From Tubulanus polymorphus (lineage: Eukaryota; Animalia; Nemertea): a DNA stretch of 64,000 bases. Below the pieces are notes generated by a model that saw nothing but the letters and a program-made list of their open reading frames with translations, was not told where the DNA came from and searched no databases. This document shows positions 12,326 through 35,614 of this stretch, piece after piece (positions within the stretch are counted from its first letter, which is position 1; every line of letters begins with the position of its first letter). Where the stretch lies: the NCBI RefSeq assembly GCF_964204645.1, contig NC_134029.1, forward strand, positions 12,736,850-12,800,849. Reading direction: 5' to 3'. A program made the translations under genes and the position numbers.

Positions 12326-12772
12326 AGTAATAGGGGTAATAGGCTTTCAGATCAAAGGTCGAACGGTCGAGCTCGTAAAAAATGAAAAACATAAAAATAA
12401 TAACAATTTCTACTTGAATTACTCGCGAAACTCATAAAAATGAAAAATAAATTCTCACACGCTCGAATTTATTTTTCATTTTAATGAGTTTCACTCCTAA
12501 TTCAAGTAGAAATTGTTATTATTTTTATGTTTTTCATTTTTTACTCACCCGCCCGTTCAACCTTTAACCCGAAAGCCTATTACCCCTATTACTCTTAAAA
12601 TATTCATTTAAATCATTGAACTTCTAAAATCAATTTTAATAAAAAATATAGTATTAAAATGGAAGCAAATAAGTACTACTGCCCAACATGTAATATCGAT
12701 ATAGATAAATCCCAAAAAGCAAGACACAATAAAACTAGAACACATTTAGAGAATAAATTGAAACTAGAATAT
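12326..12772 (+). repeat. Left TIR of B (~447 bp), with 268-bp terminal fold-back at 12326..12593
   Basis: Inverted copy at 29158..29619; internal palindrome with apex TCACACGCTC. Confidence 0.95.
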
Positions 12773-15700
12773 AAAGATAATATATTAGAAACTAAATTAG
12801 AAGAATTAAAGAATGAAAAAGAAACATACAAATGTGATACATGTAATCAATCATTCAGTGATAAAAGATATTATAAAGAACATTTAAAATCTATAAGTCA
12901 TATTAGAAATAAGAATAATGATATTATAGGTGAAGATTATTTTGATAATGATAACGATAAGAAACAGAAGATAATTAAAAGCATAAAAAATAAATTAAAC
13001 AATAAAAGACCATACATGGAAGATGTAAGAAATTATATTAATTCATTAGATAATAAAAAAGATATAGAGATAACCGAAGCATTTAAAAGTGATATTGGTC
13101 CAGCAGCTATCGAGTTTAAATTTCATAAAAGTAAAACAATAGAAGAAAATAAAAAACATTTAGAAAATATGAAAGAAATAATAAAAATAATTACAAACGT
13201 AGAATATCCAAAAATTAGTATATCAGTTAAAGTAAAGTTTATAAAATCTGAAGATAAACCAATATATAATATAAATTCTCATTCACAACATATTATATCT
13301 AAACAACATATAGAAGATAAATTAAATAAATGTTATAATGAAATAAAAACTAAAATAGAAGAGAAATATTTTGAAGGATCTGGTTTAATATTTGATGAGA
13401 TAATATTTATAACTTTACATGTTTATAACACAAAATATAATAAGTTAACTAAATCAAAACCAATAGATGAAAATAATGTATCATATTATAAAGAACCTGA
13501 TATTGAAGCATCAAGTTATATTAAACTACCATTTAAAACTAATGCTGTAATAAACGTACAAAATGAAGATGATAAATGTTTTATATGGGCTATAATAAGT
13601 TGTTTACATCCTGCAACTTATAATATTTGTAGATTAACTCATTATAAACCATTTGAAAATAATTATAAGATAGATAAGTATCCTGTTAGAATTAAAAACA
13701 TCCCAAAAATAGAAAGAGATAATAATTTAAAGATAAATGTATTTGATTTAATCAAATTACCAAATACAAAAGGTAACAACATAAAACATTATACATTAGA
13801 ACCTTTATACCTATCAAAAGATTATGATTCAAATGATGTTATAGATATACTATATTATGAGAATCATTATATGTGGATTAAACAAATAGATTTATTTTTT
13901 AGAACAGAAAGTGATCACCATAATAAGATATATCTATGTAGAAAATGTTTACATAAATTTAGTAATGAAAGTACATTATTAAATCATAAACAATTATGTG
14001 ATAATCATGATTATTGTAAATTAGTTTTACCAAATGAAAAAGATAAAATATTAGAATTCAAAAAATATGATTACAAAAATAAAGTACCATTTGTAATATA
14101 TGGAGATTTTGAATCATTAAATAAAGAATTAACAGATAAAGATAGAAAAGATATATATTATAAAAGAAAGAAATTAAATTCTAATGAAAATGATTATTCA
14201 GATGAACCATCAATAACAAATACTATTAAAAAGATTCATCAATCAGCTGCTGCTTTCGGGTTATATATTAAATCTAATTATCCAGAACTAATTGAAAGTG
14301 AATATTATAATTACAGAAATGAAAATGTTATCAATCATTTTTGTGACTTATTAATTGAATATGAAATAAGATTTAATGAAAAGTTAAATAAAAACATAGA
14401 AATTATAATGACAGAAGAAGATAAAGAAGCATTTGAGTTTGCAGATAAATGTTATTATTGTGAAAAGATATTTAATTATAAAGATAAAAAAGTAAGAGAC
14501 CATGATCATTTGAATGGAAAGTTTAGAGGCGCTGCACATGAGAATTGTAACTTACAAGCTAAGAAAATTAACTTTGTACCAGTTATATTTCATAACCTAT
14601 CAGGATATGATGCACATTTATTTATCAAACAGTTATGTCATAAAATAGAAGAAATCAATAATGAAATAGAAATATTAAATTCAAATAGATCAAAAGATAA
14701 AATACCAACTTATAGATTTAGAATGTTAGCTAAAACATCTGAGAATTATATATCATTCCAATTTGGTTGTCTAAGATTTATAGATTCATATAGATTTTTA
14801 AATAGTTCATTAGATAACTTATCAAAATCATTAGTTGATGATGAATTAAAGATATTAAAAGAATATTACCCAAATAATGATGATTTTAAATTAATGAGAT
14901 ATAAAGGAGCAATTCCATATTCTTTCTATAAAAATCATAATGATTTTAAAATAACTGAATTATTGAAAGAACAATTTTATGATGAATTAAAAAATGAATA
15001 TGTTAAAGATGAAGTCTATAATAGAACATTGAATATTTGGAATCATTTCAAAATAGAAAATCACGGGCAATTAGTAGATTTATATTTAAAATCAGATGTA
15101 TTATTATTAACCGATATATTCGAAAGGTTTAGAGATGTAAACCTAAAATATTTCAATATTGATCCTTGTCATTGTTATTCATCACCAGGATTAACATGGG
15201 ATTGTGGATTAAAATTTACAGATATAAAAATGGATTTGTTAACAAATATAGATCAATTACTATTATTTGAAAAATCTATAAGAGGAGGTGTTTCAGGTGT
15301 ATTGGGTGATAGATATTTCAATGTAAATGATAATCCTGGATATAAATTATTATACATAGATGCAAATAATCTTTATGGTTGGGCAATGATGGAACCACAA
15401 CCTTATGGGATGTTTGAAATAACTGAAGTTTTACAAATTGATAAATTTGATTGGAAGAAAAGAATCCTAGATATTGCAGATGATTCAGATATTGGTTACT
15501 TCTTCGTTGTAGATTTAGAATACCCTGAAAATATTAAATTCAAATCTAGAAATCTAGCATATTGTCCCGAACATAAAACTGTTAAACATGAAGAATTATC
15601 AAATTATCAAAAAAGAATTAAACCCGATAATCATATTCATACTGAAAAGTTAATGGTAACTCAAGAAGATAAATATAATTACGTTGTGCATTATAGAATG

Positions 15701-16684
15701 TTGAAGTTTTATTTGAGACAAGGAATGATATTAAAAAAAGTACATAGATATATTTCATTCAGTCAATCTAAATGGTTAGAAAAATATATAGATTTTAATA
15801 CTACACAGAGAACTAAATCTAAAACTGATTTTGAAAAAGATTTTTTTAAGTTAATGAATAATGCGTTCTATGGAAAAACTTGTGAAAACATAAGAAATAG
15901 AAATGATATTGAGTTAGTTAGTAATGGTAAAAGGATAAGGCATTTACAATCATATCCTAAGTTTATAGGTAACAGAATATTTGATGAAAATTTAGCAGCA
16001 GTTAAAATGAGAAGAACTTCAATGAAGTTCGATAAACCTATTTATGTTGGTGCATCAGTTCTAGAAATTTCAAAATTATTAATGTATCAATTTTACTATA
16101 ACATATTACAACCTAATTTTGGAGAAAAGAATATAGAAATTCTATACTTTGATACAGATTCTTACATATTAAAGATAAAAACTGATAACATAACTGATGA
16201 TTTAAAAACATTAAAACACCATTTTGATTTTAGTAATTATCCAAAAAATCATGAATTGTTTACCAATGATAATAAAAAAGTTCCTGGGAAGTTTAAAGAT
16301 GAATTAGGTGGTGAAGAAATGATAGAGTTCATTGGTATTAGATCTAAAATGTATTCATATAAAACTAAAGAACATGAAGCTAAAAAGTTAAAAGGAATTA
16401 CCAAAAGTGTAGTAGAAAAGAATATTCATTTCAAAGATTACATCAATTGTATATTTAATGAAGAAGTTAGAAAACATAAGATGAAATGTTTAAGACCTGA
16501 AGATCATGAAATGTATATTGAAGAGATAGAGAAGATAAGTCTAAACCCATTTGATGATAAAAGATATATTTTAGATGATGGAATCCACACAGTCGCCTAT
16601 GGTTGCAATTTAGATGAATATATAAAATTCAAAAGAGAAGAAACAAAAGAAAATGAGATTATGAAAAGGATTCTAACGTGTTAA
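12659..16684 (+). CDS. polB: Protein-primed family B DNA polymerase with N-terminal zinc fingers, putative terminal protein/OTU-like region and EndoVII-like insert
   Basis: Intact 1341 aa; exonuclease YGDFES and FHNLSGYD, YIDANNLYGWAM, KLMNNAFYGK, YFDTDS, KMY; CYYC..DHDH..G..RG..H..CN; DDKCFIWA...NHY. Confidence 0.97.
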   Translation: MEANKYYCPTCNIDIDKSQKARHNKTRTHLENKLKLEYKDNILETKLEELKNEKETYKCDTCNQSFSDKRYYKEHLKSISHIRNKNNDIIGEDYFDNDNDKKQKIIKSIKNKLNNKRPYMEDVRNYINSLDNKKDIEITEAFKSDIGPAAIEFKFHKSKTIEENKKHLENMKEIIKIITNVEYPKISISVKVKFIKSEDKPIYNINSHSQHIISKQHIEDKLNKCYNEIKTKIEEKYFEGSGLIFDEIIFITLHVYNTKYNKLTKSKPIDENNVSYYKEPDIEASSYIKLPFKTNAVINVQNEDDKCFIWAIISCLHPATYNICRLTHYKPFENNYKIDKYPVRIKNIPKIERDNNLKINVFDLIKLPNTKGNNIKHYTLEPLYLSKDYDSNDVIDILYYENHYMWIKQIDLFFRTESDHHNKIYLCRKCLHKFSNESTLLNHKQLCDNHDYCKLVLPNEKDKILEFKKYDYKNKVPFVIYGDFESLNKELTDKDRKDIYYKRKKLNSNENDYSDEPSITNTIKKIHQSAAAFGLYIKSNYPELIESEYYNYRNENVINHFCDLLIEYEIRFNEKLNKNIEIIMTEEDKEAFEFADKCYYCEKIFNYKDKKVRDHDHLNGKFRGAAHENCNLQAKKINFVPVIFHNLSGYDAHLFIKQLCHKIEEINNEIEILNSNRSKDKIPTYRFRMLAKTSENYISFQFGCLRFIDSYRFLNSSLDNLSKSLVDDELKILKEYYPNNDDFKLMRYKGAIPYSFYKNHNDFKITELLKEQFYDELKNEYVKDEVYNRTLNIWNHFKIENHGQLVDLYLKSDVLLLTDIFERFRDVNLKYFNIDPCHCYSSPGLTWDCGLKFTDIKMDLLTNIDQLLLFEKSIRGGVSGVLGDRYFNVNDNPGYKLLYIDANNLYGWAMMEPQPYGMFEITEVLQIDKFDWKKRILDIADDSDIGYFFVVDLEYPENIKFKSRNLAYCPEHKTVKHEELSNYQKRIKPDNHIHTEKLMVTQEDKYNYVVHYRMLKFYLRQGMILKKVHRYISFSQSKWLEKYIDFNTTQRTKSKTDFEKDFFKLMNNAFYGKTCENIRNRNDIELVSNGKRIRHLQSYPKFIGNRIFDENLAAVKMRRTSMKFDKPIYVGASVLEISKLLMYQFYYNILQPNFGEKNIEILYFDTDSYILKIKTDNITDDLKTLKHHFDFSNYPKNHELFTNDNKKVPGKFKDELGGEEMIEFIGIRSKMYSYKTKEHEAKKLKGITKSVVEKNIHFKDYINCIFNEEVRKHKMKCLRPEDHEMYIEEIEKISLNPFDDKRYILDDGIHTVAYGCNLDEYIKFKREETKENEIMKRILTC

Positions 16685-16712
16685 TCAATTTCAATAAAAA
16701 TTTGTATAATAA

Positions 16713-17054
16713 ATGGAGAGTAAACAAGTACACTGTGAATTCTTAGATAGAATTAAAGATACTTCAAGCGTCAAATCTGTAGATTATAAATTTAAAAAAC
16801 TAACTGAGTTAACAATTCACAAGAAATATTTAATTACTAACATTGAAACAATTACTAATAAATATGGAGATAAATTAGTAATTCATTTAGAATATGAAGG
16901 ATTAAAAGGAAATACATATAAATTCAGAACATATTTACCAGATAGATTTCATAGATTATCAAGTGAAGATCAAGAAGAATTATGTTCTGGAGATTTCTAT
17001 TTCGTATACAAAGGTAAGAATGAAAAAGGGCACCACGATATTGATTTTGAATGA
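16713..17054 (+). CDS. Small conserved beta-rich protein, possibly an OB-fold ssDNA-binding protein
   Basis: TAAATG start; homolog in C 33312..33638 (KKL..., T.YG, LPD, Y.GKNE.GHHD). Fold is inferred. Confidence 0.7.
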   Translation: MESKQVHCEFLDRIKDTSSVKSVDYKFKKLTELTIHKKYLITNIETITNKYGDKLVIHLEYEGLKGNTYKFRTYLPDRFHRLSSEDQEELCSGDFYFVYKGKNEKGHHDIDFE

Positions 17055-17069
17055 AAATATGTAAAATAA

Positions 17070-17825
17070 ATGGTAGAATTAAAAGAATACAGAATATTTG
17101 TTGATTCTAGAAAACTTACAAATTATAAATCTCATAATTTACTAGTACAATTAGATAGAGAATTCAAGAATTGTGTAGATTTAAAATTAGTAAATATAAG
17201 TTTATGTAATTCTTTTCATAATATATCAAATAAAAGTCTTGATCATTTAGCTTTTAAAATTCATGTTAGAAATTTGAATAAATGGTTTCATCTTTATCTA
17301 AAACCAGGATTATATAATTTAGAAACATTAGCGCAAGAAATTAATAGAAGAGCTCGTTTAAAAATGGGTGCAGCTGCTAGATTTGAAATTAAATTTATCA
17401 AAAATGATAGTTCGAATAAAATAAGAATAAAGTTAACTAATGAACAACATAGATTTCTAGTAAGAAAACCTTTAGCTAAACTGTTTGGAATTCTCCCGGA
17501 TAGAGATTATTCAAGTATCGAAACTTATACAAATTTAATGACTTTTACACATTTTTATATTTATTGCAATTTAATCGATCCTACAAAAACATTCGAAGCA
17601 ACTAAAGATATAACTTGTAATTCTAGTATATTAAACATTTTACCATTGAAGAATGTTAAACAATTTGGAACGCAAATAAATTACAATTTAGCTGAATGTG
17701 ATTTTAAACCTTGTATTCCTCAATTTAATAATTTTAAATTAGAAATAAGAAATCATAATGGATACTTAATTGATTTGAATAACTTTCCTGTAATTTATGA
17801 ATTAGTTATAAGATGTAAAGAGTAA
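17070..17825 (+). CDS. Putative minor capsid (penton, single jelly-roll) protein
   Basis: N-terminal IFVDSR, LKPGLY, YIYCNLI, C-terminal LEIRNHNGYLIDLNN pattern typical of polinton pentons; 251 aa. Confidence 0.8.
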   Translation: MVELKEYRIFVDSRKLTNYKSHNLLVQLDREFKNCVDLKLVNISLCNSFHNISNKSLDHLAFKIHVRNLNKWFHLYLKPGLYNLETLAQEINRRARLKMGAAARFEIKFIKNDSSNKIRIKLTNEQHRFLVRKPLAKLFGILPDRDYSSIETYTNLMTFTHFYIYCNLIDPTKTFEATKDITCNSSILNILPLKNVKQFGTQINYNLAECDFKPCIPQFNNFKLEIRNHNGYLIDLNNFPVIYELVIRCKE

Positions 17826-17841
17826 TTTTTTCACTATATAA

Positions 17842-18186
17842 ATGAATATAACTGTTGGACCGAGTATATGTTTTGGGTTTGATTTTAAACGTGAGAAAGA
17901 AATGAAATTTAAAATTAATGATGTAATTACACATATCAAAAATATTGCATTTTCTAATGAAACAACATTTGAGTATGAAACAACAATTGATAAAGAAACT
18001 TTTAATGTAGAAAAGATTACCGAGTCTTTAAGATTTTATGAATTAGATGAAGATTTTATAATCGATGATATTAAAAAAATAATAATTGAAATATATACCA
18101 ATGAAACTAGTAATAAAATAAATGTTGAATTAATCATAAATAAGTTAACTAAATATTTTGAAGATAGTAATTTTTTTGATAAATAA
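17842..18186 (+). CDS. Hypothetical protein
   Basis: TAAATG start; homolog in C at 43175..43520. Confidence 0.75.
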   Translation: MNITVGPSICFGFDFKREKEMKFKINDVITHIKNIAFSNETTFEYETTIDKETFNVEKITESLRFYELDEDFIIDDIKKIIIEIYTNETSNKINVELIINKLTKYFEDSNFFDK

Positions 18187-18408
18187 ATGAGTGATAATAA
18201 GTGGATAATAACTGGATTATATAATGGCGCATTACTATCAGTTGGAACTGTTGGTTATTCAATGGTATTAAAAAAAGTATTCAAAATGGGAAGTGTTAAT
18301 GTTGATAGATTTTATATAAATGATATTTTAAAGTTAACATTAGCAGTTACTTTATCTAATTTAACTATTGATTATTTGGAAAAACAAAAATATATTCCTC
18401 CCATATAA
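18187..18408 (+). CDS. Small hydrophobic protein (putative virion membrane protein)
   Basis: 73 aa, nearly identical in C 42950..43171. Confidence 0.8.
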   Translation: MSDNKWIITGLYNGALLSVGTVGYSMVLKKVFKMGSVNVDRFYINDILKLTLAVTLSNLTIDYLEKQKYIPPI

Positions 18409-18432
18409 ATGCATAATTTTTTTGCTAAATAA

Positions 18433-18855
18433 ATGGCTTCTGCAATTATAACTATTATAAGATCGGCAATTGTTAACGCTTTAGCATTTACTGGTGGTGG
18501 TTATTTATTTAAACATATTGATAAAAATAGTTCATTAGGAGAACAAAGAAGACATAACTTAGCGTTAGAGAAATACAATAAAGCTGCAGAAGAATATAGA
18601 GAAAAGAGGCAAAACTATATGGATTACATCAATAAAGAATTATATGATCAGAAGATTTCACATAGAGATTTTCAATCAGTTGATGATGCAATGAGTTTAT
18701 ATAACGCGGTAACAAATAAAGAAAAATTACATCTATACAAACCTAAATTATCAGATTATTATACCCCAAGTAAAGAACAACAGAAATATGAAATAATATG
18801 GATTTTAGGTGGAACAGTTATTGTTATATTTGTTGCTTATAAATTTACTAATTAG
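18433..18855 (+). CDS. Protein with hydrophobic N- and C-termini and central coiled coil
   Basis: 140 aa; VNALAFTGG, RHNLALE; homolog C 42503..42925. Confidence 0.82.
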   Translation: MASAIITIIRSAIVNALAFTGGGYLFKHIDKNSSLGEQRRHNLALEKYNKAAEEYREKRQNYMDYINKELYDQKISHRDFQSVDDAMSLYNAVTNKEKLHLYKPKLSDYYTPSKEQQKYEIIWILGGTVIVIFVAYKFTN

Positions 18856-18874
18856 TAAGTTTTATTCTAAATAA

Positions 18875-19309
18875 ATGGAAGATAAAGTTGATAGTATTGA
18901 TATTATTCCTCATGATATAAATAAAACTAAATTAAAAACATATTTAGAAAAACAAATATTAGAATTTGAAAGTGACTTAAAGATAAAAAAGAAAAAATAT
19001 TTAAAAAGTAAAATTATATATTATCTTATTATAAGTGGTTCGGTTACAATTAGTTCTGTAATAACATTTCTAGCAATATTCAGTCCATTAACACCTTTAG
19101 CTATATCAATTGGTGTATTAGGATTAAGTTCAAGTGTTTTAACTGGTATAAGTTCAAAATTAAATATAAAAAGTAATAAAGAAAAAATTAAAACTAATAT
19201 AAAAGAAATAAATAAATTAAAGAACACACTAGATTATATAATAAGTTTAAATGGTCATATAACAGTTGAAGAACAAGATAAATTATTAAAAGAATTAATA
19301 AATTATTAA
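18875..19309 (+). CDS. Two-TM coiled-coil protein
   Basis: 144 aa with central hydrophobic hairpin; interrupted homolog in C. Confidence 0.8.
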   Translation: MEDKVDSIDIIPHDINKTKLKTYLEKQILEFESDLKIKKKKYLKSKIIYYLIISGSVTISSVITFLAIFSPLTPLAISIGVLGLSSSVLTGISSKLNIKSNKEKIKTNIKEINKLKNTLDYIISLNGHITVEEQDKLLKELINY

Positions 19310-19326
19310 TTTTTTTAATTATATAA

Positions 19327-20715
19327 ATGGTAGATAGTTTTCCAAAAGCTTTCCAATATAATAAATCAATTAAATATAATATTCCAGCAATAGATTTTAA
19401 TAAAGATATTACATATAGAAATGAAGTTTTAAATTCATTAACTAATTTAGAAATTTATGTTACTGAAACTAATAATTTTAATGCAAAGATGGAAAATATA
19501 TTTCATGTATATTTAATTAATTTTAAAAAATTGAAAGATGAAAAACAATGGTTATTAAAATCTAATATGAAGTATTGGCAGAACCAATTAAATTTTGCTG
19601 TTTATTGTGCAACAACAGGATGTGGAATAAGTTGGAATGATCATTTAAATAATTCTAAATATAAATTAATTCAAAGTTTATTTAGATTTCATACATACTT
19701 TCAAATCAGAATAATATTAAATGAATTAGAGTGCGCTTTACCAGGATCTAGGTATTTCAAAGAATTAGATAATAATATTAATTTATCAAAGTTTTATAAA
19801 ATTTGTAATGAATTTAATATAGATATAAATAATTCTGATTTTAGAACAAAAATTGGAACAATAAGATCACTTCCTTGCCCTAAAAAGATTGCAGAATATT
19901 GTGCACTTCCCATACCATCTAATAGTTTTTATAATATCTATAATAATAAATTAGGTTATGGTAAAATAGAAACAAAGGATTTAGAAACATTAAATTTCAA
20001 TAAATTACCAAAATTTTATGATAATTTAAAACAAGAAAACAATAATGGTTGGGTATATTTTATTTTAGAAAATAGTGAAGGTTTTACTAAATCAGGTATA
20101 GAAAGAATAAATCAATCTATTAGAACTTATTTGATATGTATTTTAGGTGCGCAAGTTGAAACAAGATCCCCAATAATTGGAAATTTAAATACATCATTCG
20201 ATACACAAAAACAATTCAAAGTATTATTTGAAGATTCCATACATAATGATAAAAATAGATCGATTCCAGAAAACATTATAAGATATCAAAATTATTTAGA
20301 TAAATCTCATGTAAGACTTAATTATTGTATAGGCCCTAATCTATTAATTATTTCTAATGATTTAGTATTAAAGATGGGAAATATAATTGGTTATAATAAT
20401 CTAATTAAAACTGCAACAATAAATAATTCATTTGGATTGAATGATATAAATAAAAAGATTATTACTGCTCCAAAATTAATGGAAGGTGAAAAAAATAAAA
20501 AACATATTCAATCAACTGAAACTAAAACTAAGAATATTAAATTGGATAATGATTCTAAAATAAAAGATTACAATACATCAGAAAATAATAGAACTGATAA
20601 AATTCAACATGATATAATTAAACTAAATGATGATAATAAATCCCATGAAAATACTAAATTAGCTATAACTTGTATAGGAATTGTAATCGGAGGAATATTA
20701 TATTTTAAATTTTAA
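19327..20715 (+). CDS. Conserved polinton protein of unknown function with C-terminal TM anchor
   Basis: 462 aa; WQNQLNFAVYCATTGCGIS, INQSIRTY..CILGAQ; homolog C 39485..40884. Confidence 0.85.
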   Translation: MVDSFPKAFQYNKSIKYNIPAIDFNKDITYRNEVLNSLTNLEIYVTETNNFNAKMENIFHVYLINFKKLKDEKQWLLKSNMKYWQNQLNFAVYCATTGCGISWNDHLNNSKYKLIQSLFRFHTYFQIRIILNELECALPGSRYFKELDNNINLSKFYKICNEFNIDINNSDFRTKIGTIRSLPCPKKIAEYCALPIPSNSFYNIYNNKLGYGKIETKDLETLNFNKLPKFYDNLKQENNNGWVYFILENSEGFTKSGIERINQSIRTYLICILGAQVETRSPIIGNLNTSFDTQKQFKVLFEDSIHNDKNRSIPENIIRYQNYLDKSHVRLNYCIGPNLLIISNDLVLKMGNIIGYNNLIKTATINNSFGLNDINKKIITAPKLMEGEKNKKHIQSTETKTKNIKLDNDSKIKDYNTSENNRTDKIQHDIIKLNDDNKSHENTKLAITCIGIVIGGILYFKF

Positions 20716-20731
20716 TTTTTTTATTATGTAA

Positions 20732-21670
20732 ATGGAAATAGAAGGTGGAGAAGATATTCCATTGGGAGAAATGGGAAATAATAATGAAGGATATATTGAT
20801 AATGATTATAATGATGCAGAAACTAATATTGATGATGATGATGAATCAGCATATAATACTAATTTAGGTGAAGATGATGATTATGATGATGATGATGATG
20901 ATTCCGAATTACGTGAAAAATTATATAAATATTTAAAAGCTCCTGAAAGTGGTAGAATTTCAACTAGAACAGAAAGAAAAGAATTTATGAAACTATTAGT
21001 AGAACAACAAGAAAAATATCCTGATAAACCTATGGAATTATATAAAATGAAATCTAGAGTAACAGATACAATTGTTAACGAACTATTACCAAAAGTTGTA
21101 ATAGATGAAATTGATACTGAAGGTGTTGTAGAACAAATTTTTAAAGATGACCCATATTTCACAAATAATTTAGAATTTAAAAATGATGCATGGTATTATA
21201 ATCTTGAATTAAATAGGAATACCGTATCAATTCAATTATCTAGAATGGGTCAAGAAAATATTTTTGAACCTGGAATGCGAGCAAGATCTACAATTGAACG
21301 TTCAAAAGGTGGCACAGAATTTCTCAGAATTATATGGAATGCAATCGATAGAATAAATGAAGAAGAACCAATTCCGAATATTGATATAAACAAATATTCA
21401 CCATTTAAAAATCCAAATCCAAATCCTACTGATTTTGATCCAGAAATGGAAGAGAATAGAAATCGATTAGATAGATTGAGATCTTCAACACCCGAAACAT
21501 CGAGAAGAGATATTCAACAAATTGATAATGATTCAAATCAATTAAATTATGGTAAAATAATTGATACAATGAATTCATTTGAAGAAGATATGATTAGTAT
21601 TTTAGATACGCCCGGTACTGAAACTAGAATAAATCGAATACAATCTTTACTAGAAAAAAGGATTACTTGA
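20732..21670 (+). CDS. Acidic N-terminal part of a large virion/membrane-type protein (continues in +1 frame)
   Basis: TAAATG start, Asp-rich; the +1 frame continues GLLDLTDDELE into ORF 21729..22448. Confidence 0.75.
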   Translation: MEIEGGEDIPLGEMGNNNEGYIDNDYNDAETNIDDDDESAYNTNLGEDDDYDDDDDDSELREKLYKYLKAPESGRISTRTERKEFMKLLVEQQEKYPDKPMELYKMKSRVTDTIVNELLPKVVIDEIDTEGVVEQIFKDDPYFTNNLEFKNDAWYYNLELNRNTVSIQLSRMGQENIFEPGMRARSTIERSKGGTEFLRIIWNAIDRINEEEPIPNIDINKYSPFKNPNPNPTDFDPEMEENRNRLDRLRSSTPETSRRDIQQIDNDSNQLNYGKIIDTMNSFEEDMISILDTPGTETRINRIQSLLEKRIT

Positions 21671-21728
21671 TTTAACTGATGATGAATTAGAAGCATTTCC
21701 TGAACAAGCACGTAGAGAAATTAAAGGT

Positions 21729-22448
21729 ATGCAAGAATCAGCTGGTGAAATTGCTAATATTAAGATGAGATTTTCTAAAATAACCATATTAGAAAAAGAA
21801 TTAGTTAATGTAGATGAAGAATTAAAACAATTAGAATTAAATAGAGATCATCAAGTAGTTTATGAAGCTTATTTTGAAAGCAAAAAGTTAGTTTTAGTAA
21901 AAGAAATAGATGATTTAGAATATAACATAAAATTACAAAAAGAAGAAAGAGATATATTATTAAAATCATATGATCTTAATCATATTAAAAAATTAAAAGT
22001 TATTTTTAAAGATTTGTTGATTAAACCAGATTCTGAAATATCATTAAAAGACAGAATAAGATTATTACTTAAATTAGAAGGAATAACAATTCTTTCAATT
22101 CTAACAAATGTAACTATGTTATTTACAACAATTGGTTTAGCAATATCAAATGCTTTAAAATCTACTCCTACTCCTACTCCAAATAAACCAGATAAACCTC
22201 CAGGTAATAATTCTATACAAGATAAAGTTAAAGATGGTTTAAAAAAATTAGCAAAATATTTATGGGAACTATCAAAGAAATCTGCTGCAGCATTGCCAGG
22301 AGTTATTGCATCAATTGTTGGTTTTATATTGAAATCTGCAGGAAACATTATTAACTTTGCTGCTGAACATATTATTTTATTTTTAATTACAGTTGTAAGT
22401 GCTATTATTTTTGGGTTAGTAAACCTGATATCAAAAAATATCAAGTAA
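21729..22448 (+). CDS. Coiled-coil plus multi-TM protein (C-terminal part of the above)
   Basis: GITILSILT..., KKSAAALPG.IASIV..IL, C-terminal TM; homologs in A and C. Confidence 0.8.
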   Translation: MQESAGEIANIKMRFSKITILEKELVNVDEELKQLELNRDHQVVYEAYFESKKLVLVKEIDDLEYNIKLQKEERDILLKSYDLNHIKKLKVIFKDLLIKPDSEISLKDRIRLLLKLEGITILSILTNVTMLFTTIGLAISNALKSTPTPTPNKPDKPPGNNSIQDKVKDGLKKLAKYLWELSKKSAAALPGVIASIVGFILKSAGNIINFAAEHIILFLITVVSAIIFGLVNLISKNIK

Positions 22449-22493
22449 ACCATGATATCAAAAAATAAATAATTAATTTTTTTTGTTAAATAA

Positions 22494-23741
22494 ATGAGTG
22501 GGAGTTATATAAGTCCTTCGAAGAATCATAGAATATCTAATGCTATTAAAGCAGAAAGATCACATCATATAATTACTCATAACCCTTCAAATATTAATCC
22601 CGATGAAACTTTATACGTTAGAATTCCTCGATTAACACAAAATACTTTTTATGTTCCAAACAGTATTTATTTATCAGCCGATATAAAAGTAACCGGTAAT
22701 AATAATAATTATGTCGTTGATAATGTTGGAAGATATTTGATTAAAAAGTTAACAATAAAGATTGGTCCGGAAACAGTTTTTTCATTAGATGATTATAATT
22801 TATTTATGCATTATAAAGATTAATGGTTAACTAAAGAAAATAGAAATAATATGATATTTCAAGGAATTCAATCAGAAAACCAAAATAAATTAAGATCAGA
22901 AGCTAATAGCGCAATATTAACTAATGATGTAGATAAATTGATAAAAAGTATATATGGAAACAAATATAAAATTCCATTAGATTTTGAATTGATAAATAAT
23001 AATGCACCTTTATATAAATACGCAATTCAAGAAGATATTATATTTGAGATAACATTTGCTCCTGTAAATGAAATTGTATTATTTAGCGTTAATAAAGATA
23101 TGAGTTATAAATTATCGAATATATGTTTCGAATATGATACAGTAACTGATGAAAATATTTCAAGTATAATTCAAACTAAATATAATCAAGGGTTTTCATT
23201 ATTATATGATTATATTGATAAATTTAAAACTGTAACTATTAATGCAAATGATGAAATAATTAATGAGAATATTAACTTCCCTAGAAGATCTATTAAAGGT
23301 ATATTAATATTTTTTACCATTGGAACGTATACTAATGGCGCAATAAATGTTGATAATTATTATAATCCTGAAATAACAAAAGTAGAAATAACTATCGAAG
23401 GAATAGCGAATGAAATATTTTGTCAAGGAATGAGAATGATTGATCAATGGGTAGAAATTAAAAAACATTTTATGAATGAAAAAGTAAAATCATCTGAAAA
23501 TTGTAATATTAATCAAATTGATTATTATACCGGTAATAAATATGCATTATGGTTAGATTTTAGAACAACTGAAGATAATTCATTACATGGTTCTGGGAAA
23601 AAACTACAAAACACTAAAGATGGAATACAATTATTCATGACAAAGAATAAAGGAATCAAAAATTTTAAAATGCACATTTATATTATATCTGACGCGCAAT
23701 TAAATATTGTAAATTCACAATTAGATAGTGTTATGTATTAA
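22494..23741 (+). pseudogene. Putative double jelly-roll major capsid protein of B (415 codons, single TTA>TAA stop at 22821)
   Basis: ORFs 22494-22823 and 22851-23741 share a frame; A and C have TTA TGG at this site. Confidence 0.8.
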
Positions 23742-23773
23742 AATTTTAACTTTAATAAAAATATATATATTAA

Positions 23774-24931
23774 ATGGAAGGTGGAATATATGAAATACAA
23801 TCTCCAAGTGAAATGATATCAGATATATATCATATATTACCTTATGATGAATACAGTAAGTATTTTGGAGATTACTTTAATCAATTCAAATATAGAATAA
23901 GTAAAATAGATAAGAATATTGAAACAAAAAAAGAAAATAATATTGAACCTAAAATAGAAGATAATATTGAATATAAAATAGAAGATAATATTGAAACTAA
24001 AATAGAAGATAGTAATAATATTGAAACTAAAATAGAAGATGTAACAGCATCTACATCTTATAATATACCCTCTACATATGATATTGAATCAAAAAAAGAT
24101 TATAATCAAAAATATTGTGATGTATGTAAGAAATATATATCATATAAAAATTGGGCATCACATAAGAAATCAAAGAAACATATAGAAAAAGAAAAGAATA
24201 ATAATGATAATAATATATCAGTTAGTAATATAAAAGATAATGTTAATACAATTGAAACAAATGATACCATAGATAATATAACAGATAATGTAATAAATAA
24301 TGTTAACCCAATTGAAACTAATGATAATGATATAACAGATAATGAAATAATTGATGATTCTAAAAAACATTGTAACATTTGTAATTTAGATATTTCTAAA
24401 AGTAATTTTTCTAAACATAAAAAAACTAGGGGGCACATAGAAAATGAAAAAGAATTAATATGTGATTATTGTAATAAAGAAATTGAACCTGTTGATAAAA
24501 TTACTCATTATAAATCAAAATTACATCTAATTAATGTTTATAAAAAAGTGGGTATGTTACCATTGTTAAATAACCCTTTAGAATATATAAAATATTTTGA
24601 TTATAATATTAACCAATATGATATATTCTATAATTTGTTATTACATAAATTTTTAGATTATGCAAACGATAATCTTGAACAAATGTATAAATTATTATAT
24701 TTGAGAAGAAAAGATTCAACTTATTTGATAATTAATTTTGGATATGATATTGATTTTTATTATTATGATTTTGATGAAAACTTTGAAAAAATAAAAGAAA
24801 AAATTAATATGCCTACTGATTATAGATTAATGATGGATCGACTAAACTCAATAAATATACCAAAGACTTATGGAGAATTTGATATAAACGAAGATGATTT
24901 TATAAATGTATTAGAAACAAAATTAGAATAA
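23774..24931 (+). CDS. Triple C2H2-type zinc-finger protein
   Basis: Homolog of A 6621..7784; (KIEDNIE)n repeats; three zinc fingers. Confidence 0.85.
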   Translation: MEGGIYEIQSPSEMISDIYHILPYDEYSKYFGDYFNQFKYRISKIDKNIETKKENNIEPKIEDNIEYKIEDNIETKIEDSNNIETKIEDVTASTSYNIPSTYDIESKKDYNQKYCDVCKKYISYKNWASHKKSKKHIEKEKNNNDNNISVSNIKDNVNTIETNDTIDNITDNVINNVNPIETNDNDITDNEIIDDSKKHCNICNLDISKSNFSKHKKTRGHIENEKELICDYCNKEIEPVDKITHYKSKLHLINVYKKVGMLPLLNNPLEYIKYFDYNINQYDIFYNLLLHKFLDYANDNLEQMYKLLYLRRKDSTYLIINFGYDIDFYYYDFDENFEKIKEKINMPTDYRLMMDRLNSINIPKTYGEFDINEDDFINVLETKLE

Positions 24932-25345
24932 TTATTATAAAACTATTTATATATCTATAAAACTATTTATATATCTATAAAACTATTTATATATCTATGC
25001 ACTAGACGTACGAGTAAGAAAGTAAGAATCCAAGAATCCTTGCCAAGAAATATAAATTATAAACATAGATTATAAACATAAATTATAAACATAAATTATA
25101 AATATAAATTATAAATATGAATTATAAACATAAATTATAAATATAAATTATAAACATAAATTATAAACATAGTTTTAATATATGATTTATTCATTATTAT
25201 ATATTTCATTTAATAATTCATATTTTTATAGACTAGACGTACGTAAGAATCCAAGATTCTTGCCAAGAAAGTAAAAAGGTAAGAATCTTACTTTCTTACT
25301 CGTACGTCTAGTACATAGATATATAAATTAGTTTCTATAATATTC
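24930..25345. repeat. Palindromic/repeat spacer between convergent gene blocks of B
   Basis: 21-bp direct repeats, ACTAGACGTACGAGTAAGAAAGTAAGA and its inverted copy, 14-bp (TAAATTATAAACA)n array. Confidence 0.85.
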
Positions 25346-25357
25346 CAAATTAGGATT

Positions 25358-25972
25358 TTATTTTATAAATTTATATTCATATGGAAATTGTAATCTCATT
25401 AATAATTTTGAACCTTTATTATTCTTTAATTTATTCATATATTCATCATGTAATTCAGGAGGTATAATTTGATTTTCTTCCAATGATTGTTGCATAGATT
25501 TTCTATCTTTGTTGTAGAATAAAACTAGAAATCTTATATTCTCTCTAAAATCTTTCACAATTGAATTATATTTCTGATTTAAAACCCATGTTGTTATCCC
25601 AAAATGTCTACCAGAGAAAGCTAAATAACATAACTCACTTTCTCTAATTTTAGAATCATGTAAATTTGCGCAATCATCAATAATAAATAATGTATTTGAT
25701 CCTTTATAAATATCTAATGCAATTTTTATACAATTATCTAAATTATCTTTCACTGTTTTAGAATTTAATATAATAAACTTTTTATCTTTAAAAACTATAT
25801 CTCTATTATACGTTTCATTCATTTCATAAGTTGGGCAGAATAATATTATATTATCAAAATGATTCTTATAAATAGTTTCTAATAAATATAATATGAAGTG
25901 TGTTTTACCACAATTTGTAACTCCAGTAACTAACATATTATGAGGTTCAAATATAAATAAATCTTAATTCAT
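25358..25972 (-). pseudogene. A32-like packaging ATPase of B (stop at codon 3 from the TAAATG start; ORF 25358..25936 otherwise open)
   Basis: GVTNCGKT, FIIDD, GRH; ATG AAT TAA here versus ATG AAT AAA in A. Confidence 0.9.
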
Positions 25973-27065
25973 TTATTCTTTTAATTTTACTAGATAAAAT
26001 CCATTCATTAAATTTATCATCATATCCTTTATATTTCACCAGAGAATATTTCTTACCGCGTAATGTTTTAGTTTTTAATACCTTTTCTATTTTGTATTCT
26101 ATTTCATCTGGATTTGGTACTAATGATAATTCTTATTCATAAAAATAACCTAATATTTCTTCATCTTTTAAATCAAACAATTTATAAACAAATGGTTTAG
26201 TTAATATTATCTTTTTAATTTTAAATATTTCTTCTGTAAAATTAGGGGTATAACCTTTATAAAATGTTTTTCGATATTTAGAAATTCTAACATGTTGTCC
26301 TATTTTAAATTTAGGTTCTCCAAAATCATGTGTAACAAATGCACCATATAAATTATTCCAAACTATTTCTGAATTTTCTTCTTTTCTAGCTTGTATAGGT
26401 TTCATATTTATAGAATTATGTTTAGAATTATTATAACCTTTAACTAAATCATCTAATGTATTTATAGACTCATCGATATATTTGTATGTTTCATTAGCGG
26501 TGAAATATTTCCACATTCTAGTTTTCAATGTTTTATTAAATCTTTCTATAACAGATGCTTTTTTATCTGAATGTGTTGAAAAATATTCTACATCGTTATC
26601 AGTTAATAGTTTTTTAAAATGTTTGTTATAAAATTCTTTACCTTCATCAAATTGTATTTTATCTGGGATAGCTTCTTTAAATATTAATTTGAAAGAATTT
26701 GTAACTTCTATACCAGTTTTATTTTTGATTGGAATTGACCATGCGTATCTACTGAATATATCTATAACATTTAGTATCCAAAAATATCCTTTGTTATATT
26801 CTTCTAAGTTTTTCATATCAATTAAATCAGCTTGCCATTGTTGATCGATATATGAAACCATTACTTTTCTTGTTAAATATTTTTTATCCATCTTTTTATG
26901 AATTTGATATGTGGGTTGATTTTGTAACCATGATTTTAATTCACTATATTTTATTTTTTCTTTATCAGATTTAATTTTATCCCATAATTCTGAAACACTT
27001 GAATATGATACTTCACTTTCTGGGTTATAATATAAATCTCTCAAATATTGTTCTTTTTTCATCAT
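25969..27065 (-). pseudogene. rve integrase plus chromodomain of B (premature stop at 26133 before the chromodomain)
   Basis: D-D-E motifs WQADLID/FDEGKEF/IERFN; after GAA TAA the frame continues ELSLVPNPDEIEYKIEKVL...KFNEWI. Confidence 0.93.
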
Positions 27066-27068
27066 ATT

Positions 27069-27452
27069 TTAATCCATTAATAATATTTTAGATTTATTTT
27101 CATTTGATTTATTTTCTGGTATAATAGGTTTATCATCATTGGAATCATCTTTATCATCAGATTTGAATTTTGATTTATATATTACACCGGATAATATAAT
27201 AACTGTTACTAATCCAATTGTAATATATAATTTATAATTACTTCCAGCATTAGAAGAATTAGATGGATTATTATTTGAATCAATACTACCGTGTGGGTGC
27301 TGTACGGCACCATCAGATAATTTCTGTGAATCATTTATATCAGTTAATTTCTTTTTCTTAGCTTTTTTTAATTCTGATGATCTTTTACCTAATTCTCTTG
27401 CCCATTTAATTTGTTTCTCGGATCTAGCCTTTTTCTTAACGCTATCACTCAT
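27069..27452 (-). CDS. Small basic single-TM protein
   Basis: Homolog of A 9921..10280; TAAATG start. Confidence 0.8.
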   Translation of the reverse strand: MSDSVKKKARSEKQIKWARELGKRSSELKKAKKKKLTDINDSQKLSDGAVQHPHGSIDSNNNPSNSSNAGSNYKLYITIGLVTVIILSGVIYKSKFKSDDKDDSNDDKPIIPENKSNENKSKILLMD

Positions 27453-28029
27453 TTATTTTAGTTAATTTTTGTTCTGATTCATTTTCTGTTTCACTGTTTG
27501 GTTGTAGTACATCTGTTTCGTTCTTACCTGATTTATATTCCATAGGTTTGATATTCGAAAATGTTATAACTCCAGTAGAAATTAATGTCATAACCGATCC
27601 TAATTGAAATGAAGCATATCCAACCCATTTTTGTAATTCAGTCATAACTAAGTAGTCATTTTTCAAATCATTATATAATTTATTTTCATCATCAATTGGT
27701 ATTAACTGGTTACATAATTTTGAATAACATTTGACAATACCATTCGAAATAGAATCATTTATTTTAGATAATCTTGCCTCTTCATAAATCTTAAAATATT
27801 TTATTACTTTTTCTTTATTCATATTATCTAATTCTTGAAAAGTTATTGTTTTACCAATAAACTCTTTAGTTTTTCCACTCGCAATCAATAGTTCTAGATG
27901 ATGCTTACAATATAAATAGTATTCATAATCTATAGAATTAGAAACAACTGTATCTTTTTTATCACTAATACCCAAATCATCTAATGTTTTTTCAATATCA
28001 ATACTATTCTTATTAGATTTCTTTGACAT
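27445..28029 (-). CDS. Conserved hypothetical protein
   Basis: 194 aa; homologs in A and C; TAAATG start. Confidence 0.82.
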   Translation of the reverse strand: MSKKSNKNSIDIEKTLDDLGISDKKDTVVSNSIDYEYYLYCKHHLELLIASGKTKEFIGKTITFQELDNMNKEKVIKYFKIYEEARLSKINDSISNGIVKCYSKLCNQLIPIDDENKLYNDLKNDYLVMTELQKWVGYASFQLGSVMTLISTGVITFSNIKPMEYKSGKNETDVLQPNSETENESEQKLTKINE

Positions 28030-28278
28030 TTATATTAGAGAAATTTAATAAGAATAGTATTATAAATATTCTTCAAATGATACTAGATAGTTAAAGCTAA
28101 AGAATTCTAGTATTGACTACTGATACTAGCTATTTGAATTTAAAGAATTTCTATTCGGATCTATTCAAAATATAAAGTATTCTCTTTTTGAAAAGAAAAT
28201 ATTAAAAATATAATAGAATTCGCTAGCTAGTTGAAGTTATTGTTTTTTAAATACTTTTTATTTAAAATCTATTATTCT

Positions 28279-28941
28279 TTAACCACTCATTAAAGACTCA
28301 ACGTATTGTTCATTATGTGTTGAATTCCATAATTCAATAAATTTTTTTACTTTTTCCAGTTGATTCAAATATAACTGTAAATCTATTTTATTAGATTTGA
28401 TTTGATTTTCTTTCTTTTCTAAAGGTCTTAAATTTTTCCAATTCCAAATAAGTTTTTTATTGTATTCATCATTCATGTTAAATTTAGATATTGGTAACAC
28501 GTGATCAATATGGTAATAATCCCCATAATTATCTATATTCATTTTATCATCGAATTGATATATAATCCATGATTTGAGAAATTCATCTGAACAACCCAAT
28601 AAATTAGATAATGTTTCTGAATGTGTTTCTTTGTTGAATAATTGTGTTAATCTAGACCGTAAACATTGTTTCAATCTAAAATTAAGATCTGTTTGATATC
28701 TTTCTCTCATATATTTTGTCATATAATAATTATAATGTTCTATATTATCTTCTCGATATTGTTTGGTATATAGTTTAATGCAAGTTTTACAGTAATATTG
28801 AAAACCATCTTTGCTAGTCTTACGCTTACTAAATTCTGTTAATGATTTATCTAATTCACATTTAGAACACTTTTTGTAATATATGTTTATAACACCAGTG
28901 TTATTTGTAATATTGATAATTTGTGGTTGTTCTGGTTCCAT
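28279..28941 (-). CDS. HNH endonuclease (large DNA virus type) with N-terminal Cys4 module
   Basis: CSKC...CKTC, LGCS, NYG..YHIDHVLP, WKNLRPL...N..KS. Confidence 0.88.
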   Translation of the reverse strand: MEPEQPQIINITNNTGVINIYYKKCSKCELDKSLTEFSKRKTSKDGFQYYCKTCIKLYTKQYREDNIEHYNYYMTKYMRERYQTDLNFRLKQCLRSRLTQLFNKETHSETLSNLLGCSDEFLKSWIIYQFDDKMNIDNYGDYYHIDHVLPISKFNMNDEYNKKLIWNWKNLRPLEKKENQIKSNKIDLQLYLNQLEKVKKFIELWNSTHNEQYVESLMSG

Positions 28942-29019
28942 TTATTATACGTATTTTTTTACTAAATTGGTTAATAATTTATAATCCTCTTCCATTTCTT
29001 CGACCAACGTTATCCTTTT

Positions 29020-29271
29020 TCATTCCTCGCTGCTTTTGATAAGTTGTTTCGATTCCTTGATATCAAATTCCTCAACGTATTGTTCATTATTTGGATCATT
29101 ATTCCATAATTCAATAAATTTCTTTCCCTTTGTTAACTGTTCTGAATATAACTGTAAATATTCTAGTTTCAATTTATTCTCTAAATGTGTTCTAGTTTTA
29201 TTGTGTCTTGCGTTTTGGGATTTATCTATATCGATATTACATGTTGGGCAGTAGTACTTATTTGTTTCCAT
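29020..29271 (-). CDS. Chimeric polB zinc finger / HNH-tail ORF starting in the right TIR of B
   Basis: METNKYYCPTC...KLKLEY|LQLYSEQLTKGKKFIELWNN. Confidence 0.6.
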   Translation of the reverse strand: METNKYYCPTCNIDIDKSQNARHNKTRTHLENKLKLEYLQLYSEQLTKGKKFIELWNNDPNNEQYVEEFDIKESKQLIKSSEE

Positions 29272-29619
29272 TTTAATACTATATTTTTTATTAAAATTGA
29301 TTTTAGAAGTTCAATGATTTAAATGTTATTCATATATATGAATATTTTAAGAGTAATAGGGGTAATAGGCTTTCGGGTTAAAGGTTGAACGGGCGGGTGA
29401 GTAAAAAATGAAAAACATAAAAATAATAACAATTTCTACTTGAATTAGGAGTGAAACTCATAAAAATGAAAAATAAATTCGAGCGTGTGAGAATTTATTT
29501 TTCATTTTTATGAGTTTCGCGAGTAATTCAAGTAGAAATTGTTATTATTTTTATGTTTTTCATTTTTTACGAGCTCGACCGTTCGACCTTTGATCTGAAA
29601 GCCTATTACCCCTATTACT
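29158..29619 (-). repeat. Right TIR of B
   Basis: Reverse complement of 12326..12772 with a ~15-bp indel. Confidence 0.95.
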
Positions 29620-29625
29620 GCTAGT

Positions 29626-30109
29626 GTAATAGGGAATACTCAACTGTGATTGGATAGAGTAATACTCAACTGTGATTGGATAGATTAATAGTAAAATACT
29701 CAACTGTGATTGGCTGGAAATACTCAACTGTGATTGGATAGAGTAATAGGGAATATTCAACTGTGATTGGCTGGAGATACTCAACTGTGATTGGCTAGAG
29801 TAATACTCAACTGTGATTGGCTAATGTAGTTTTCTAGATGGATGGTTCTAGAATCAACATGTAATACGCAATACTCAACGTGTTGAGGCTTGTAAATTAT
29901 GAGACTTGTGATTAGATAGAGTAATAGGGGTTTAGTTGTTTCATATCAAAGGTTGAGAGGTTGATAAATTTTCCAAATGTGAAAATAACAATAATTTCTA
30001 CTTGAATTAGGATTGTACGCGACTAATTCAAGTAGAAATTATTGTTATTTTCACATTTGGAAAATTTCTCGACCTCTCTTTGGTATGAAACAACTAAACC
30101 CCTATTACT
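29626..30109 (-). repeat. Outer part of the right TIR of A (CCAAT array plus terminal fold-back)
   Basis: Reverse complement of 264..~750. Confidence 0.93.
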
Positions 30110-32570: not shown

Positions 32571-33311
32571 CTGAAATGGGAAAAAATAAATTGACTTACA
32601 GATTAGCTTTAATCAAAAAGCATACAAAATGGCAATAAAAATAATGGACTTTTTCTAACATTAAAACGATATTTATTAACATATAGAATTCCCCTCCCCG
32701 GTAAGTTTTAACCCAAATTGTTAAGTAGTTGGTAAAAAATCCTCCAGAAAACTTATTAAATTTTTGATTGAGCGTAGACCTAGTTTATTATGAGATATGG
32801 GTAAACGATTCAAAGTGACACTGATCAAGTAGTTAGTTAGAGACATAATGTAGTTATAAAATCTATTATATAAAAAACTACATTTTTCATGATACAATAC
32901 AAGAAATAATGGGTATACTAACGACTTGCGAGTATACGTCCCCTGTGGTCACTGAACCGAAATTAATTAAACAAAAATTAAACTGAACTGAATTCAATTT
33001 ACATGTAAGTCATAGTTAAATTGTTAAACAACAGGGGATGTATACTCGCAAGTAATTATGCACTGATACATCGTTGTGGGCTTCGTCTCGTAAAAACATG
33101 GGGGCGTATACGGTTATAGATAAAAGCCCCTGGGTAAAATCCCCAAATATTCCAAGTAGGTAAAAGTCCCCACTTAGTGATTTTCAAGAACATTGAAGCA
33201 CGATGTTTCTCTAATTTTATTCATTTGATTAATTGGAAAAGTAGGCTTTCAGATCAGAGGTCGAAGGTCGAGACACCACTCATCACCACATGTAATTTTT
33301 TCCCCTAATAA

Positions 33312-33638
33312 ATGGGAGATAGAAAAGCATTCTTAGCAACAATAAATAACAGAATAAAACCAGCAAAAAAACAATTTGAAATAAAAAAGTTAGCTGATGT
33401 TACAAAAGAAATTGAACATAAAATATTGAAATTAGAAAAGATAAAAACTGAATATGGAGAGAACGTATCAGCTAATTTAAGCTACTGTAATGTTAGTACA
33501 TCGCGAGAATTTAAAGTATTTTTACCTGATAAATGGGTTTCATTGATTACAGAGGAATTAAAAGATTTAGAAGGATTTAAAATAATCTATCATGGAAAAA
33601 ATGAAGATGGCCATCATGATTTAGAAATTGTTGATTGA
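33312..33638 (+). CDS. Homolog of the B 113-aa protein (possible SSB)
   Basis: Start codon lies at the inner edge of the TIR (TAAATG); shared motifs. Confidence 0.75.
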   Translation: MGDRKAFLATINNRIKPAKKQFEIKKLADVTKEIEHKILKLEKIKTEYGENVSANLSYCNVSTSREFKVFLPDKWVSLITEELKDLEGFKIIYHGKNEDGHHDLEIVD

Positions 33639-34697: not shown

Positions 34698-34711
34698 TTA
34701 TATAACAAATA

Positions 34712-35610: not shown

Positions 35611-35614
35611 TTAT

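Follow-up and report, generated by a model that had tools for sequence, protein, structure and literature searches.

Background

Mavericks or Polintons (Polintoviricetes; adintoviruses), especially those with a nuclease-containing family B DNA polymerase of the protein-primed type (pPolB), are the closest described relatives of the elements reported here, with which they share pPolB, an rve integrase, an A32-like ATPase, a double jelly-roll capsid protein, terminal inverted repeats (TIRs) starting with AGT, a 6-bp target-site duplication (TSD) and the presence of multiple copies in an animal genome (PMC10748475 and PMC8502044, in part; sources marked "in part" are cited from the accessible part of their text). 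Whether animal Mavericks live as autonomous nuclear viruses, mere transposons or virophages that need a helper is a long-open question for which there has been almost no experimental handle. PMC8502044, PMC10748475, PMC11131425 and PMC11161782 do not use the word "promoter" in their main texts. In this paper we have analysed a 64-kb, AT-rich stretch of the genome of the nemertean Tubulanus polymorphus (GCF_964204645.1, contig NC_134029.1, positions 12,736,850 to 12,800,849; hereafter the window), which contains three Maverick/Polinton elements, A, B and C, with B nested in A. Most genes of B start with the hexamer TAAATG, in an arrangement that probably represents promoters of the poxvirus type. 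Unlike known Mavericks, the element carries such a poxvirus-type start motif gene by gene, has genes on both strands, in an order that changes between relatives, and encodes no recognised adenain-like protease, whereas the canonical Mavericks that we sampled have co-directional genes and are without the motif.

Two further groups of elements invite comparison. Polinton-like viruses have been found in entomopoxvirus occlusion bodies, the link to the poxvirus being co-sequencing (Barth et al. 2024, PMC11296320, in part). According to the same source, these viruses (AHEV_PLV1/2, CBEV_PLV1 and Ca_PLV1) are, like the elements in the window, small capsid-encoding DNA elements, and they have been proposed to be parasites of animal poxviruses; they are about 12 kb long, two of them bearing PolB without a detected rve integrase and the other two primase-helicases and tyrosine recombinases. 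The terms promoter, transcription, TAAAT and motif are absent from the main text of that study. Virophage promoters, on the other hand, have been reported to resemble the late motif of the helper (10.64898/2026.07.28.741278, in part). The endogenous mavirus-type virophages of Cafeteria and Halocafeteria are, as here, host-integrated elements with an integrase, pPolB and a helper late motif. Protist virophages with helper-matched promoters are known already, and so are polinton-like viruses associated with poxviruses; what appears to be new is the presence of probable poxvirus-type promoters on Mavericks, of which no report was found in the literature searched, subscription journals and supplements being outside its scope. 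Mavirus-type virophages differ from the present elements in that they live in protists, have helpers of the mimivirus type and carry a virophage capsid and a TCTA-type motif, where we find a polinton capsid, an animal host and a poxviral motif. Integrated copies of mavirus are silent until infection by the helper.

Results and discussion

The TAAATG motif at the gene starts of element B

Throughout this paper the A of the ATG is +1, and the position listed for a start is that of this A. All 14 TAAATG starts listed for B in the initial annotation, which had taken them for poxvirus late-promoter architecture, were found at the exact positions given (Table 1), so that 14 of the 17 gene starts of B carry the motif. 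Thirteen of the 14 open an open reading frame (ORF) of at least 70 amino acids (aa); the exception, the start of the ATPase gene at 25972, was placed by orthology with element A (8809). The three remaining starts read TAAAATG (polB and the TIR ORF at 29271) or AATATG (integrase). The motif was also said to recur in the other two elements, and it does so at 6 of 9 starts in A and at 13 of 14 in C, polB of C included.

The initial annotation had proposed internal ATGs as the null. In-frame internal ATGs were rejected for this purpose, because a preceding TAA would be a stop codon in them, and the 81 such ATGs of B were removed. Among all other ATGs of B on both strands the motif occurs at 39 of 596 (6.5%), against 14 of 17 at the gene starts (Fisher p=1.3e-13), which bears out the expected enrichment. 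Local upstream composition predicts TAAATG at P=0.09, under which 14 of 17 has a p of about 1e-12. When the first ATG after each stop was taken in the six frames of B, 53 of 491 read TAAATG, the true starts included, and a blind ORF rule applied to B gave 13 of 19.

The T at -3, which had been called invariant, is present at 14 of the 17 starts and thus is not. There is, however, a second fixed base that the first reading had missed, a T at -12, found at 16 of the 17 B starts. In B and its relatives it accompanies 67 of 70 TAAATG starts but only 47 of 124 TAAATG hexamers that are not starts (p=3e-17). The T-runs described upstream of the motif are real, but runs of five or more Ts precede only six of the 14 B starts and runs of four or more precede seven. 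In B and C together, runs of at least four Ts are found at 17 of 27 starts, and they end 5-8 nt before TAAAT, at 6 nt in 10 of the 17. Intergenic gaps under 40 bp, which had been held too short for RNA polymerase II (Pol II) promoters, do prevail in B (11 of 16), but a canonical Maverick, locus L029, has them just as often (10 of 11), so that they do not discriminate.

Two other explanations of the motif were rejected: stop-start coupling, as the TAA is the stop codon of the upstream gene at 1 of the 14 B starts, and a splice acceptor, as YAG is found at none of the 14. The early terminator TTTTTNT occurs 10 times in sense and 62 times in antisense orientation, a rarity that follows the A-rich coding strand.

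Similarity to vaccinia promoters

In the late promoters of vaccinia virus, TAAAT overlaps the start codon, and of the Ts that lie upstream the one at the 10th base is conserved and the others are weaker (PMC11980589, in part). The late core contains Ts and is separated from TAAAT by 5-7 bp (PMC5294985, in part) or 6 bp (PMC7117657), and the last T of the run in the P11 promoter stands at exactly -12 (PMC7117657, Table 1). The conserved T of the element is the 9th base upstream, which agrees within one base by counting convention with the position given in PMC11980589 (in part) and exactly with P11; if TAAA is numbered -1 to +3 (PMC12917281), the -12 of the element becomes -10 from the start site. 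The spacer of 5-8 nt, with its mode at 6, likewise resembles the spacing in vaccinia.

In B, an A-run takes the place of the T-run upstream of polB, the 113-, 251-, 385- and 220-aa ORFs and the ATPase gene, and the T-run class comprises the capsid gene and its neighbours. The A-run class is partly conserved and keeps the T at -12, and several orthologues change class. In vaccinia the intermediate logo favours A and the late logo T (PMC11980589, in part). Poxvirus intermediate promoters form a temporal class of their own, with TAAA as initiator and a core rich in A/T that lies 15-19 nt upstream. The TAAAATG at polB had been suggested to mark an intermediate class. The G8R intermediate promoter of vaccinia does end in this way, but as a marker of a class the sequence is not conserved, since polB of C and of locus L025 use TAAATG and that of L024 uses TAGATG. 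Temporal classes among the genes of the elements are a possibility.

The elements thus share with vaccinia late and intermediate promoters TAAAT over the ATG, an upstream T, a T-run with a spacer of about 6 nt and an A-rich subclass; unlike in vaccinia, these promoters lie on an element without a recognisable RNA polymerase, and the T-run/A-run class is not strictly conserved among orthologues. The proposed poxvirus post-replicative architecture is supported by the T at -12 and the 6-nt spacer, as well as by the clade conservation, the promoters that lie back to back, the four sets of negative controls and the VLTF3-like gene described below. Entomopoxviruses use TAAATG too.

Distribution of the motif

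Of 22 related loci, 15, all of them metagenome contigs on which the capsid protein reaches an identity of about 50% or more, make up the clade, two (L015 and L016) form a sister set, and five degraded distant matches were excluded. In the clade, at a GC content of 20-44%, TAAATG is present at 57 of 67 starts, compared with 84 of 1926 in the background. Gene order and orientation vary among these contigs, and lineage-specific genes carry the motif as well. Seven divergent gene pairs have TAAATG on both strands with 19-34 nt between them. TAG or TGA precedes just one of the 67 starts, compared with TAA at 57, which argues that the motif is not a generic stop insulator. The Polinton L025 is more distantly related (35% in PolB and 44% in the integrase); TAAATG is found at all of its seven starts and the T at -12, which is weaker here, at four.

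The control sets behave differently. The initial annotation had called for a comparison with canonical Mavericks, and here the motif is indeed scarce, with TAAATG at 6 of 91 starts in 15 canonical-type loci, while position -3 is a purine at 68 of the 91; of these loci L029 matches DNA_pol_B_2 and, weakly, adenain, and the label of the fragments is our own. TAAATG was found at none of 14 starts in a virophage with a related PolB, and at 7 of 68 in six giant-virus contigs (GC 25-38%) that are related to the intein-bearing polymerases described below. It is also absent from all eight starts of the sister lineage L015/L016 (GC 29-30%), the placement of which comes from a quick capsid tree with a long-branch warning (Shimodaira-Hasegawa-like approximate likelihood ratio support of the clade 99). 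At several starts of L015/L016, TATAG or TATAA lies no more than about 10 nt away, in loose resemblance to the late element of asfarvirus, and this pattern might possibly reflect a switch of helper. Among the sets compared, the combination of TAAATG and T at -12 is confined to a single clade and L025.

When viral contigs were scanned for the motif, 20 matches were obtained, none of them TAAATG-rich; with 0-2 such starts each, these are considered chance matches. Nothing was found in capsid and VLTF3 searches of viral contigs or in a capsid search of genome contigs. The P0009 cluster contains 55%-identical capsid relatives that were deposited as hypothetical proteins in Bartonella assemblies, where they lie on contigs of 0.5-1.6 kb; these are probably contamination from the animal host.

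The VLTF3-like gene, an intein and a Pol II-type module

Element C carries a broken gene for a zinc-finger/VLTF3-like late transcription factor (Table 1), the 3' piece of which matches Pox_VLTF3 above cutoff and the 5' piece of which has a CxxC-x13-CxxC pattern; unbroken fusions of the two parts are present in relatives (P0163 and P0164). VLTF3 is the A2L late factor of vaccinia (PMC11980589, in part), and it has already been reported in some polintons (PMC11131425; PMC8502044, in part). Searches for relatives of the domain came back empty against the PDB and with the longer protein, and an Atlas search returned only Nucleocytoviricota. In L001, a deoxynucleoside kinase gene (10340-10981, minus strand) with a T-run/TAAATG start lies back to back with the zinc-finger/VLTF3-like gene.

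At the polymerase motif-C site of its polB gene, C contains an intein (48530-49590, minus strand) that includes a LAGLIDADG endonuclease and is decayed; the intein is also present in L024 and P0176. Its relatives lie in another pPolB (57%) and, at 39-40%, in three PolBs that are Pol delta-like, two of these having relatives on giant-virus contigs; this suggests that inteins may have passed between large DNA viruses and Mavericks.

The terminal repeat of A contains a Pol II-type module with eight CCAAT boxes, a TATA box (TATAAAT at 820), two GC boxes (GGCGGG), an E-box (CACGTG) and, at 876, a splice donor that fits the consensus perfectly. Such motifs are absent from the stretches between repeat and first gene in B and C. 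The module is likely a host Pol II promoter for polB, which suggests that subfamily A may have a second, nuclear mode.

A putative poxvirus-type helper

We consider it probable that the TAAATG starts are post-replicative (late or intermediate) promoters for the RNA polymerase of a poxvirus-type helper, and that the integrase-bearing Mavericks would be virophage-like parasites, silent until the helper infects. Transcription by a helper is proposed because the element has no recognisable RNA polymerase of its own and carries a probable poxvirus-type promoter before each gene; from these promoters we infer that its replication, too, would depend on the co-infecting virus. Integrated copies would lie silent until helper infection, as in mavirus, and the DNA of the element might then reach the cytoplasmic factory of the helper inside a virion that co-infects the cell or after being released from the chromosome. 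There the helper polymerase would initiate within TAAAT. In vaccinia, slippage on AAA provides a 5' poly(A) leader (PMC12722222, in part), and if the same happened here it would place A rather than T at -3 of the mRNA, so that the T at -3, contrary to Kozak preference in the DNA, would no longer be in conflict. The element would make its own capsid and PolB and compete for late transcription, possibly by means of its VLTF3-like protein. PolB and integrase, which may be required in small amounts or inside the nucleus, would have relaxed promoters, to which subfamily A would add a host Pol II promoter.

Several observations weigh against this reading. The promoters are predicted from the DNA sequence. 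Three near-pairs among the clade loci (L002/L003, L009/L010 and L011/L012) reduce the number of independent loci to fewer than 15. The control Mavericks are richer in GC (36-44%) than the clade and mostly fragments, and they have a slight excess of the motif themselves (6 of 91 starts against a background of 2.2%, p=0.02). The motif is kept at only 6 of 13 polB and integrase starts, compared with 57 of 58 in other genes (tallied by hand over A, B, C, L001, L003-L005, L024 and L025, the TIR ORF excluded). The VLTF3-like domain is absent from A and B, is not assignable to poxviruses over other Nucleocytoviricota and belongs to a family already known in polintons, and the nearest non-polinton relatives of the intein are Pol delta-like and not poxvirus enzymes. 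Finally, the Pol II promoter and splice donor of A make nuclear transcription plausible, at least of polB.

Part of this evidence would fit a helper that is some other large DNA virus with the same initiator, from an undescribed lineage of Pokkesviricetes or other Nucleocytoviricota, which we regard as improbable. The intein does tie the family to non-pox polymerases, VLTF3 is common across Nucleocytoviricota, the TATAG/TATAA-like pattern in L015/L016 hints at helper switching, and the egoviruses are a sister order of the poxviruses (10.1101/2024.03.23.586382, in part), the word "promoter" occurring nowhere in the accessible text of that source. However, about one start in ten reads TAAATG on the giant-virus contigs that are kin to the intein-bearing polymerases, and a start-overlapping TAAAT(G) is given for poxvirus late genes, from which the late motifs of asfarvirus, mimivirus and CroV differ (PMC5294985, in part).

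It is also conceivable that no helper is involved and that the motif reflects the translation or nuclear-transcription context of an AT-rich lineage, as a stop insulator or a host Pol II initiator. The TAA is a stop in frame with the ATG, B is 77% AT, the repeat of A bears a Pol II promoter with a splice donor, and the high copy number with many insertion sites speaks for efficient spread within the genome. A stop insulator, however, would leave the fixed T at -12 and the spacer unexplained; TAG and TGA go practically unused, and a single B start abuts the stop of the preceding gene. Moreover, the motif persists at a GC content of 40-44%, canonical Mavericks prefer a purine at -3, AT-rich giant viruses are mostly without TAAATG, and the back-to-back pairs leave just 19-34 nt for two promoters, all of which makes this explanation decidedly unlikely. 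The promoters might finally be relics of a past poxvirus-dependent phase, the present copies moving only as nuclear transposons. All three copies in the window are damaged, A and B are without the VLTF3-like gene, and the two genes needed for transposition, polB and integrase, have the most decayed motifs; nevertheless, the other genes have kept the motif almost without exception across capsids 50-80% identical and after gene rearrangement, which points to continuing selection until recently, and we give this possibility very little credence.

If the TAAATG starts are indeed promoters for a poxvirus-type helper, the mavirus-type provirophage model extends from protists to animals and poxviruses and points to unknown poxvirus hosts. 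A helper-specific promoter at each gene names the type of the helper, can be tested with reporters and could sort Mavericks by lifestyle across thousands of genomes. More tentatively, and with somewhat less than even confidence, we suggest that a widespread clade of animal Polintons consists of endogenous poxvirus parasites that are wired gene by gene to the late machinery, divert it with a late factor of their own, switch helpers by rewriting promoters and provide invertebrates with an inducible anti-poxvirus defence, in which case T(-12)/TAAATG would mark the hosts of undiscovered poxviruses.

Structure and gene content of the elements

TIRs and a 6-bp TSD were found for each of the three elements, all of which carry breaks (Table 1). 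The TSD copies of B lie at 12320-12325 and 29620-29625. Reads from the same species confirm both ends of B, contain the empty site as a 12319-29620 joint as well as A-type terminal repeats without B, and have numerous distinct flanks at both ends of B, which indicates that the B family is multi-copy.

Table 1. Coordinates of the elements, genes and other features in the window
Feature	Position	Strand	Remarks
Element A	264..30109		internally deleted, interrupted by B; bounds from TSDs
Element B	12326..29619		17.3-kb Maverick/Polinton, 6-bp TSD, inside right terminal repeat of A
Element C	33228..54403		decayed, host insertions present; bounds from TSDs
Terminal imperfect palindromes of A	264-457 and about 29916-30109		194 bp
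Terminal imperfect palindromes of B	left 12326..12593, right 29352..29619	left +	268 bp; inverted-repeat call
Pol II-type module in A terminal repeat	557..883	+	mirrored at 12042-12319 and 29626-29830; upstream of polB
PolB of B, 1341 aa	12659..16684	+	endonuclease VII-like insert; start TAAAATG behind A-rich core
113-aa ORF	16713..17054	+	TAAATG, upstream A-run, T at -12
251-aa ORF	17070..17825	+	TAAATG, upstream A-run; no Pfam match
114-aa ORF	17842..18186	+	T-run and TAAATG
73-aa ORF	18187..18408	+	T-run and TAAATG; sole B start whose TAA is the stop of the preceding gene
140-aa ORF	18433..18855	+	T-run and TAAATG
SLATT-like two-helix membrane protein, 144 aa	18875..19309	+	TAAATG; weak SLATT matches below cutoff
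462-aa ORF	19327..20715	+	T-run and TAAATG
Single gene broken into two ORFs (312 and 239 aa)	20732..22448	+	T-run and TAAATG at 20732
Double jelly-roll major capsid gene	22494..23741	+	T-run and TAAATG; stop at 22821-22823 splits the B copy
385-aa zinc-finger ORF	23774..24931	+	A-run core and TAAATG
A32-like packaging ATPase	25358..25972	-	Pox_A32 E 1e-10; TAAATG at 25972; third codon is a stop
Retroviral-type integrase	26133..27065	-	rve E 7e-9, above cutoff; start AATATG; C-terminally shortened by alignment
127-aa ORF	27069..27452	-	TAAATG
194-aa ORF	27445..28029	-	TAAATG
220-aa HNH-like ORF	28279..28941	-	A-run and TAAATG; weak HNH_4 match
polB-derived TIR ORF	29271 (start)		TAAAATG
Zinc-finger/VLTF3-like late transcription factor gene of C	44375..48077	+	TAAATG at 44375; broken, 2.4-kb insertion at 45260-47660

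The PolB of B has an Endonuclease_7 match below cutoff and no direct match to Pfam DNA_pol_B_2; it was assigned to the protein-primed family because P0176, in which PF03175 is present, shares 59% identity with it over 560 aa. The gene at 20732 has unbroken orthologues in L001 (a 485-aa ORF) and L009 (453 aa). For the capsid, the relative P0002 (73% identical) was folded with a predicted local distance difference test score (pLDDT) of 84 and matches double jelly-roll capsids, those of nucleocytoplasmic large DNA viruses and virophages (best E 4e-18). Neither P0002 nor B matches the virophage-type profile Sputnik_MCP, which L023 matches at E 3e-41. Profile searches with Pfam and NCBIfam found no match to a minor capsid protein or cysteine protease among the B proteins and recognised no RNA polymerase; the 251-aa ORF is a possible candidate for the minor capsid protein. 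From its gene content, the element appears to be a true Polinton outside the virophage class (Maveriviricetes), which probably works like a poxvirus provirophage.

The left terminal palindrome of B folds as DNA at -99.1 kcal/mol (z -24). In A and B the palindrome mismatches concentrate at a GGTCGA-repeat motif; the ends are hairpin-like, and C retains only the outer arm of its terminal palindrome. The left and right palindromes are in the same orientation within A, and likewise within B, which bears on the question of flip-flop. TAAATG at 12607 (minus strand) and 29323 (plus strand) faces the palindromes of B, an arrangement that recalls poxvirus resolution sites. Among the relatives, the integrase of L025 is extended at its N-terminus by a domain of about 130 aa with a protease-like look (unscored).

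The host flank, which agrees with an origin in an animal genome, contains a stand-alone ORF of the Nrf1/erect-wing DNA-binding type (54546-55106, minus strand), a long TA microsatellite (58611-58718) and the remnant of a long terminal repeat retrotransposon integrase (61720-61932, plus strand).

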